Shown one piece after another: positions 15,148 through 15,205 of a stretch of DNA of 64,000 nucleotides. A model generated the notes under the pieces. The model did not search any database. It was not told the DNA's origin and worked only from the letters and a program-made list of their open reading frames with translations. The stretch covers positions 38,191-102,190 of the forward strand of contig JAZRZI010000021.1 in assembly GCA_045601325.1 (NCBI GenBank), read 5' to 3'. The stretch comes from Bacilli bacterium. Its GTDB lineage: Bacteria; Bacillota_I; Bacilli_A; RFN20; CAG-826. A program made the position numbers and the translations under genes. Position 1 is the stretch's first letter. Each line of letters begins with the position of its first letter.

Positions 15148-15205
15148 AAAAGTGACCTCCTAGTTATATAAGAGGAGATTTTTTTGATTTTTTTCAAAAA
15201 TAAAT
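15148..15205 (-). repeat. Copy A of a roughly 48-nt conserved leader element (anti-RBS hairpin plus T/A-rich block) upstream of the MazF-like gene
   Basis: Plus strand: tgaCCTCCTAgTTATatAAgAGGAGatttttttGAtttttttcaaaaa. It aligns to copy B at 43784-43832 with about 80% identity. Confidence 0.5.

Follow-up and report, generated by a model that had tools for sequence, protein, structure and literature searches.

A terminator-shaped hairpin predicted to sequester the Shine–Dalgarno sequence in the leaders of a MazF-like gene and a small membrane peptide gene of uncultured Bacilli

Introduction

Hairpins that take up the Shine–Dalgarno (SD) sequence of the gene they precede are a feature of several described leader RNAs. 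In the riboswitch and T-box platforms of Firmicutes, a hairpin followed by a U-tract stands before the start codon and carries the SD in its 3′ arm; with both of these elements in place, such a platform can stop transcription and mask translation at once. Anti-SD hairpins are also known from type I toxin mRNAs, such as H. pylori aapA3/IsoA3 (PMC6733600) and, in its standby arrangement, E. coli tisB (PMC7708055), in which an upstream anti-SD locks the SD of a gene for a small, membrane-directed peptide. In the translational attenuation of ermC and cat, the SD of the regulated gene forms the 3′ arm of a local hairpin within a short leader. Bidirectional intrinsic terminators, finally, have the same overall form of A-tract, stem, and U-tract.

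Here we describe a leader module that occurs twice in the window (the whole 64-kb stretch of DNA that was analyzed), once before a gene with a PemK/MazF domain and once before a gene for a 60-aa membrane peptide. The module resembles each of these systems in part. Unlike riboswitches and T-boxes, it lacks a sensor domain and an antiterminator, has only 20–30 nt of A/T-rich sequence upstream of its hairpin, and belongs to no Rfam family; as far as can be seen, it is a fixed "off" element. Unlike type I systems, the peptide locus yielded no antisense or sRNA antitoxin in a limited search; the peptide gene is vertically inherited in conserved synteny, abutting or overlapping radC, and one of the two genes served by the module encodes a 187-aa protein rather than a peptide. 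The ermC and cat leaders differ in their leader peptide, for which the module has no credible counterpart: its small frames lack an SD, begin with TTG, and are not conserved. Plain bidirectional terminators match in form, and copy B of the module is flagged as a terminator on both strands; however, the stem of the module consists of the SD and its complement and abuts the start codon, and copy A and most of its orthologues are a second hairpin behind a regular terminator. Our literature search found no paper describing this module, only these general analogues. What we report is a known trick at a new site, an SD-sequestering, terminator-like leader hairpin, and no new mechanism.

Results and Discussion

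Two copies of one leader element

Both copies lie on the minus strand, copy A at 15205–15148 and copy B at 43832–43780. In mRNA sense, copy A reads TTTATTTTTGAAAAAAATCAAAAAAATCTCCTCTTATATAACTAGGAGGTCACTTTTATG from 15205 to 15145, and copy B reads AGATTTTTTTGAAAAAAATTGAAAAATCCTCCTATTAATAAGTAGGAGGTTTTTTTATG from 43835 to 43777. The features of the two loci are as follows.

Copy A locus
15209–15228, minus strand: intrinsic terminator belonging to deoB (AAAGTAGCATCTGCTACTTT and a T-run), distinct from copy A and immediately upstream of it (terminator scan)
15179–15204, minus strand: A/T block of copy A, composed of a T-run, G, A7, TC, and A7 (TTTTTGAAAAAAATCAAAAAAA); weak U-run:A-tract hairpin on folding, no σ70-like site
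15156–15179, minus strand: hairpin of copy A, with anti-SD AUCUCCU (alternative register CCUCUUA), loop UAUAUAAC, and SD UAGGAGG, the AGGAGG at 15161–15156 (predicted fold)
15148–15155, minus strand: SD–AUG spacer UCACUUUU, a poor U-tract; AUG at 15147–15145
14584–15147, minus strand: PemK/MazF-domain gene of 187 aa, served by copy A (Pfam, 37.4 bits)

Copy B locus
43810–43832, minus strand: A/T block of copy B, composed of T7, G, A7, TTG, and A5 (pattern match)
43787–43808, minus strand: hairpin of copy B, CCUCCUAUU, loop AAUA, and AGUAGGAGG, 9-bp stem, SD AGGAGG at 43792–43787 (predicted fold)
43780–43786, minus strand: U7 tract, both terminator tail and SD–AUG spacer; AUG at 43779–43777
43597–43779, minus strand: gene for a 60-aa single-transmembrane peptide with C-terminal motif KKGTAQIPGGWKFTWN, served by copy B
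42914–43594, minus strand: radC, after a 2-nt gap from the peptide gene (gene order)

The A/T block of copy A is thus placed between the deoB terminator and the SD hairpin, and that of copy B begins 2 nt past the valS stop codon (43837–43835). Known leaders flank the region of copy B: a T-box leader lies upstream of valS (46463–46645, minus strand, 109.8 bits) and an L21 leader upstream of rplU (42778–42852, minus strand, 42.7 bits).

The order of parts is common to both copies: T-run, G, A7, T(C/T)(A/G), A5–7, anti-SD, AU-rich loop, AGGAGG, spacer, and AUG, with a spacer of 8 nt in copy A and 7 nt in copy B. The copies are identical at 45 of 58 positions (78%) in global alignment and at 38 of 46 (83%) in the best local alignment, in agreement with the first-pass annotation, which had described an element of about 48 nt with about 80% identity and identical part order, and had judged the similarity to be well above chance. 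This judgment holds as well. When the 60-nt leaders of the 46 called genes of the window were all aligned against each other, the two copies gave a local alignment score of 31, as compared with a mean of 8.6 (sd 2.3) and a maximum of 21 among the other leader pairs (n = 1035); the likeness is therefore genuine and goes beyond generic A/T richness.

A chance likeness, built from low-complexity A/T sequence and a strong SD, draws on the composition of the block, which alone was matched at least twice at up to three mismatches in 12 of 100 shuffles. The combined pattern of block, anti-SD, and SD behaves differently: it occurs only at copies A and B in the window, and it was matched in none of 100 shuffles. 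Together with the leader-pair scores, the retention of the architecture in orthologues, and the comparison of SD pairing with control genes (p = 1.5e-7, below), this effectively refutes chance similarity, which we regard as scarcely credible. The 21-nt A/T consensus itself, at up to three mismatches, has no matches in the 64-kb window other than the two copies. A scan for the exact pattern in 185,579 species-representative genomes returned two unrelated matches, one in a Treponema MAG and one in a Desulfovibrionaceae MAG that resembles an ordinary terminator, which indicates that the exact string is no widespread repeat.

Comparison of the flanks shows that the likeness of the copies ends at the edges of the element, and both copies have orthologues at the matching position in relatives, copy A in L004 and copy B in L046 and L049 (L-numbers denote loci of relatives). 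A recent copy or mobile element was rejected on these grounds, parallel retention being likelier than recent copying.

Predicted folds and the question of a sensor

The SD is fully paired in the predicted folds of both copies. The hairpin of copy A has a folding energy of −10.4 kcal/mol (z = −2.6), and its SD pairs with upstream sequence with a probability of 0.95, the highest among 24 scored genes of the window; the hairpin of copy B reaches −15.7 kcal/mol (z = −4.3). Opening the SD at 37 °C is predicted to cost 7.5 kcal/mol in copy A and 13.6 kcal/mol in copy B. The SD duplex with a 16S 3′ tail has a calculated energy of −11.4 kcal/mol; the tail was a generic one of Firmicutes type, supplied in place of the organism's own rRNA, which is not in the window.

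The first-pass annotation had proposed temperature- or ligand-sensitive occlusion of the ribosome-binding site, a proposal that the folds and database searches do not support. An SD inside a hairpin is indeed found in thermometers, and short TTG-started frames, of the kind a leader-peptide attenuator might use, cross the 5′ arm of each copy (MKKIEKSSY* in copy B, a 31-codon frame in copy A). However, the SD is predicted to remain paired from 15 to 60 °C in both copies, the mean unpaired probability of its bases up to 60 °C being at most 0.036 in copy A and at most 0.005 in copy B, and the stems are perfect and G+C-rich rather than mismatch-laden; RNA thermometers of the ROSE or fourU type were rejected on these grounds. 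No Rfam family reached its gathering score at either copy, the best sub-threshold matches being attenuator or terminator look-alikes, and a hairpin preceded by only 20–30 nt does not suit a ligand sensor; riboswitches, T-boxes, and other curated cis-regulators were rejected for these two reasons. Leader-peptide attenuation was rejected for the properties of the frames given above, and no such start codon was seen in the L046 leader. All told, we consider a thermometer, a ligand-sensing element, or a leader-peptide attenuator extremely improbable.

Conservation of SD pairing in orthologous leaders

We collected 28 orthologous MazF-like loci, of which 24 non-redundant leaders were scored, and as controls we drew 120 non-redundant genes with strong SDs from these loci and from the window. 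The median probability of pairing between the SD and upstream sequence is 0.74 in the MazF-like leaders versus 0.305 in the controls (Mann–Whitney p = 1.5e-7), and nine of the 24 leaders, as against none of the 120 controls, lie above the top control value of 0.84. Three leaders of the orthologous set (L011, L015, and L023) are without SD pairing. Outside the SD core, the flanks of the stem differ between genomes and change in step: UCUUCCUAU/AUAGGAGGA in L014, AACGCACUCUUA/UAGGAGGUGUGUU in L016, ACCUCCUUUGAC/GUUGAAGGAGGU in L019, AAGCUUCCUA/UAGGAGGCUU in L020, and UUCAUUUCC/GGAGAUGAA in L026. The outermost pair occurs as four pair types (AU, CG, GC, and UA) in the aligned subset. The covariation statistics are weak, the observed score being reached by 26 of 500 shuffles; the constraint on the SD itself leaves little room for formal covariation inside the core.

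At the peptide locus, the compact leader recurs in the closest relatives, L046 and L049. It is 56–59 nt long there and comprises two A5T tracts, then a CCUCC.../...GGAGG hairpin, then U6 before the AUG; valS has no further terminator in either. Two more distant relatives (L031 and L037) have a valS terminator of their own, followed by a leader of roughly 120–145 nt. Folding of the whole leader pairs its 5′ anti-SD with the SD (helix 1:4), stacked on a helix 2:3 of 10–12 bp, and entirely different sequences build these nested helices in the two genomes. Pairing of the 5′ end with the SD across the whole leader is a trait shared with type I toxin mRNAs. As these loci keep the SD sequestered despite a separate valS terminator, sequestration appears independent of the role as terminator of valS. 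From its modeled fold, the long leader may be switchable or processing-activated, and copy B of the window looks like a minimal version of this design. The long peptide leaders lie at about 190–318 in L031 and about 3860–4000 in L037 and have no Rfam match.

Variant leaders of the MazF-like gene

Some MazF-like loci depart from the compact form. In L011 (9900–9975) and L015 (220–292), the anti-SD is lost and the loop motif CTAACGAAGTCTAATAGGAGGG is retained; these leaders have a better promoter-like site (TCGGCA, 17–19 nt, AATAAT or TATGAT), which overlaps the upstream terminator. Judged by sequence, they may represent an alternative, derepressed arrangement.

In L021 (795–1010) and L022 (1712–2045), the MazF-like gene follows dnaJ, with leaders of about 215–335 nt whose predicted structures are very stable (−52 and −98 kcal/mol over 236 and 354 nt folded). 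The two leaders share a conserved stem, CGUCGUUACGUAUAGG ... CCUAUACGUAACGA, and each starts with a CCCCCUA/UAGAGGG-type hairpin preceded by TTTGAGAAAAAATC. The predicted folds suggest that this leader is possibly an undescribed structured RNA.

The A/T block as a candidate promoter

The first-pass annotation had taken the element for a combined promoter and translational-control cassette, with TTGAAA in the A/T block as a −35 hexamer. We looked for a σ70 promoter in which TTGAAA is followed by a −10 hexamer 16–18 nt downstream, both hexamers being conserved in orthologues. A consensus promoter scan found no site at copy A or copy B, and no canonical promoter upstream of either hairpin. In copy A, the nearest TA-rich hexamer lies 20–21 nt from TTGAAA; in copy B, the sole −10 candidate is a weak TATTAA at 18 nt, from which transcription would start inside the SD. 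The L046 leader lacks TTGAAA, and in L049 the hexamer is displaced; no −35/−10 pair is consistent across the 24 leaders, and in −10-likeness the loops do not exceed the corresponding region of the 120 control genes (p = 0.27). Spacing, scan, orthologues, and loop test all speak against TTGAAA as a σ70 −35 element, and the promoter half of the proposed cassette is not supported. Inspection of the A/T block by eye gave no convincing match to a CodY box, a σ54 site, or an alternative-sigma site.

These data also bear on the idea of a compact promoter embedded in a terminator, in which TTGAAA would be the −35 element, the loop would hold the −10 element, and the gene's own transcript would start in the 3′ arm with a free SD; only RNA reading through from upstream would then form the hairpin, to be stopped and silenced, and the module would act as an insulator. 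The 18-nt spacing in copy B accords with such an arrangement, as do the TATA-like hexamers in many loops, the perfect TATAAT just upstream of the SD in L025 and L029, and the fact that no other promoter is detectable for either gene. The 20–21 nt of copy A, the loss or displacement of TTGAAA in the orthologues, the inconsistent pairing of hexamers, and the ordinary −10-likeness of the loops all speak against it; moreover, a start about 7 nt past the loop hexamer would delete part of the SD, and the promoter before the L21 leader has a verified-looking canonical form (TTGACC, 17 nt, TGtTATATT). We consider both the embedded promoter and the insulator role that would follow from it improbable. 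We instead take the A/T block of copy A for the A-tract flank of a terminator-shaped module.

Terminator form and proposed attenuation

We took as an intrinsic terminator a G+C-rich stem of at least 5 bp with a loop of 3–8 nt and a U-tract immediately after it. In copy B the stem measures 9 bp, the loop 4 nt, and the tract is U7; copy A passes the terminator scan with a weak tail, UCACUUUU. The scan thus flags both hairpins, and that of copy B on either strand. No terminator-like site other than copy B follows valS, and deoB has its own terminator besides copy A. The succession of A-tract, stem, and U-tract is the usual form of intrinsic terminators here, as in the deoB terminator and that at 53026–53080. 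A run of at least four T residues occurs in the SD–AUG spacer of 11 of the 24 MazF-like leaders versus 13 of the 120 controls (p = 8e-5); the enrichment of A-tracts in the MazF-like leaders relative to controls is not significant (p = 0.08).

Both copies could thus be plain intrinsic terminators that end the valS and deoB transcripts, possibly in both directions, with SD pairing of no regulatory meaning; the overlap with the ribosome-binding site would then follow from the shortness of the intergenic regions. The scan results, the genome's usual terminator form, the enrichment of U-rich spacers, and the lack of any other terminator after valS in the compact peptide loci (the window, L046, and L049) are all in keeping with this. 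However, a canonical terminator distinct from the hairpin already lies 30–40 nt upstream in copy A and most MazF-like orthologues; L016, L026, L006, and L025 keep the SD hairpin without any U-tract; and L031 and L037 sequester the SD even though valS has its own terminator. A plain terminator could also be placed freely within the spacer, yet the 3′ arm is always the SD, and only at two gene families. We regard plain termination as an unlikely account of the module.

The reading that we favor, and hold to be moderately probable, is a constitutive, terminator-shaped attenuator with the SD in its 3′ arm, which blocks both read-through and translation at both genes. The sequences, the predicted folds, the pairing of the SD in orthologues, the restriction to two families, and the terminator-like form are its direct basis. 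From these we infer that transcription starts upstream so that the hairpin is present in the mRNA, that the hairpin lowers translation as well as transcription, and that low expression has been selected. In this module a G+C stem, whose 3′ arm is the gene's own SD and whose 5′ arm is an anti-SD of the CCUCCU type, stands between an A-tract and a U-tract. A transcript entering from upstream would fold the hairpin once the SD is made, and part of transcription would end at the U-tract just before the AUG, strongly in copy B and weakly in copy A. In the molecules that read through, the SD would be base-paired and binding of the 30S subunit disfavored. The outcome would be constitutively low levels of a MazF-fold protein that has no antitoxin neighbor and of a small membrane peptide with radC coupled to it. 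The hairpin might be opened by a cut in its AU-rich loop or by a helicase or chaperone.

The two copies probably differ in emphasis. The calculated energies suggest that copy A is probably mainly a translational "dimmer," since an SD duplex of −11.4 kcal/mol could still compete with an opening cost of 7.5 kcal/mol. Copy B is probably mainly the valS terminator, with near-complete masking of the SD; given 13.6 kcal/mol to open against −11.4 kcal/mol for the duplex, it may essentially be a terminator without a tunable translational role.

If the attenuator reading is right, the module is a simple regulatory RNA motif that is absent from libraries and specific to two gene families, and it would explain the near-silence of an antitoxin-less MazF-fold gene and a membrane peptide gene in little-known Bacilli of gut, rumen, and digester. 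At the peptide locus, one hairpin would then serve as terminator of the essential valS and as translational mask of the next gene. This would be useful in the annotation of compact genomes, in which such hairpins are otherwise labeled plain terminators.

Restriction to two gene families

Across the window and all loci, about 490 kb in total, a regular expression that requires a perfect 5-nt anti-SD/SD hairpin ahead of a start codon matched MazF-like genes and the peptide gene only, apart from a few spurious matches, mostly inside genes or on the opposite strand. A covariance model (R1) built from ten compact leaders gave 68.8 and 53.4 bits at the two copies in the window and 24 bits or less at the next matches, which were the opposite strand of the copies and the ordinary terminator at 53026–53080. 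In 394 kb of relatives, all R1 matches with E < 0.1 were leaders of the two families, and all were training sequences or their duplicates; the only new matches, both weak, fell on the L023 leader and on a hairpin that precedes the MazF-like gene of L021. Together with the paired SD of both folds and its retention in orthologues, this restriction supports the RBS-sequestering hairpin that had been proposed at two unrelated genes.

Recurrent motifs occur in the loops as well. The motif CTCTTAAATAAGT recurs in L016, at a MazF-like gene, and in L031, at a peptide gene, and TAACGAAGT occurs in six MazF-like leaders, some of them without an anti-SD. Such recurrence hints at sequence-specific recognition.

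One explanation for the restriction would be a binding or cleavage site shared by two operons that a single trans-acting factor co-regulates. The factor might be an RNase, either the MazF-fold endoribonuclease itself or a different enzyme, that cleaves the AU-rich loop or the CCUCC stretch resembling the 16S rRNA tail and so releases the SD, much as toxin mRNAs are activated by processing. The presence of one module at exactly two gene families over several genomes, among the loci searched, is consistent with a common factor, as is a likeness between the two copies in one genome (score 31) that exceeds what a generic function requires; the two recurrent loop motifs span families and genomes in the same way. 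Against this, loop sequences are not universally conserved, and the factor is putative, as are the activity and specificity of the MazF-fold protein. We consider each element of this reading, the shared site, the nuclease candidates, and the release of the SD by cutting, quite improbable.

In its most far-reaching form, the module would be a dedicated, unlisted cis-regulatory RNA that defines a two-operon regulon in uncultured Bacilli and is switched by a shared trans-acting factor, a proposal we find highly doubtful. The same degree of doubt attaches to the make-up of that regulon, namely an antitoxin-less MazF/CcdB-fold gene by dif and a membrane-peptide–radC operon, with the MazF-fold enzyme possibly the switch. 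If true, the arrangement would mirror that of type I toxin mRNAs activated by processing, but with a protein toxin and a tie to the replication terminus.

The peptide gene and the MazF-like gene

Both downstream genes are as the first-pass annotation described them. The 60-aa peptide is a real, conserved product with 19 homologues, nearly all of about the same length and with the invariant C-terminal motif KKGTAQIPGGWKFTWN after one transmembrane helix, and the gene belongs to no known family. In uncultured "Bacilli bacterium" assemblies, its surroundings are conserved as valS, peptide, radC, rplU, prp, rpmA, and obg, and the peptide gene always stands directly before radC, with stop and start codons overlapping or 2–3 nt apart. 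Its size, single transmembrane helix, and sequestered SD are traits of type I toxins; the conserved synteny with radC is instead atypical of them.

The 187-aa protein contains a PemK/MazF domain (Pfam, 37.4 bits against a cut-off of 23.1) and has more than 160 homologues of 167–228 aa, most of them of 180–200 aa, with an invariant N-terminal helix (L..W..Q.EY) ahead of the PemK domain. In uncultured "Bacilli bacterium" assemblies, the gene order is dinB, xerD-like, deoB, MazF-like gene, dif, and convergent nadD-yhbY-yqeH. No adjacent antitoxin gene was found in the window or at the orthologous loci, and no neighboring small gene is conserved there. A type II MazEF module was rejected given a length of 187 aa rather than about 110, the N-terminal extension, the lack of an antitoxin neighbor, and the single-copy synteny by dif. 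With its single-copy state, conserved synteny, and lack of an antitoxin neighbor, the MazF-like protein is probably not a classical type II toxin. An AlphaFold model of the protein from 37 sequences was of low confidence (pLDDT 47) and unusable.

About 150 nt downstream of the stop codon of the MazF-like gene lies a dif-like Xer site (14414–14439, motif read on the minus strand), which on the plus strand reads ACTTCGCATAA TTGTTA TTATGTTAA; for comparison, dif of E. coli is GGTGCGCATAATGTATATTATGTTAAAT and that of B. subtilis ACTTCCTAGAATATATATTATGTAAACT (PMC3025954). The motif is kept exactly in 16 loci (L004–L012, L014, L015, L018, L019, L023, L025, and L029), and the MazF-like gene is therefore tightly linked to dif, even where its upstream neighbor differs. 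The sign of the GC skew flips at 12–16 kb, and gene orientation converges at the dif-like site, which together suggest that this is probably the replication terminus. The MazF-like gene and nadD are separated by a gap of about 270 nt (14440–14583, minus strand, in the window; L003–L029), in which no conserved small ORF was seen. A tandem TTAGTAG-N5–6-TTAGTA repeat follows there right after the stop codon, and the same gap contains one to three TGTGGAAAA/TGTGGATAA motifs that resemble DnaA boxes.
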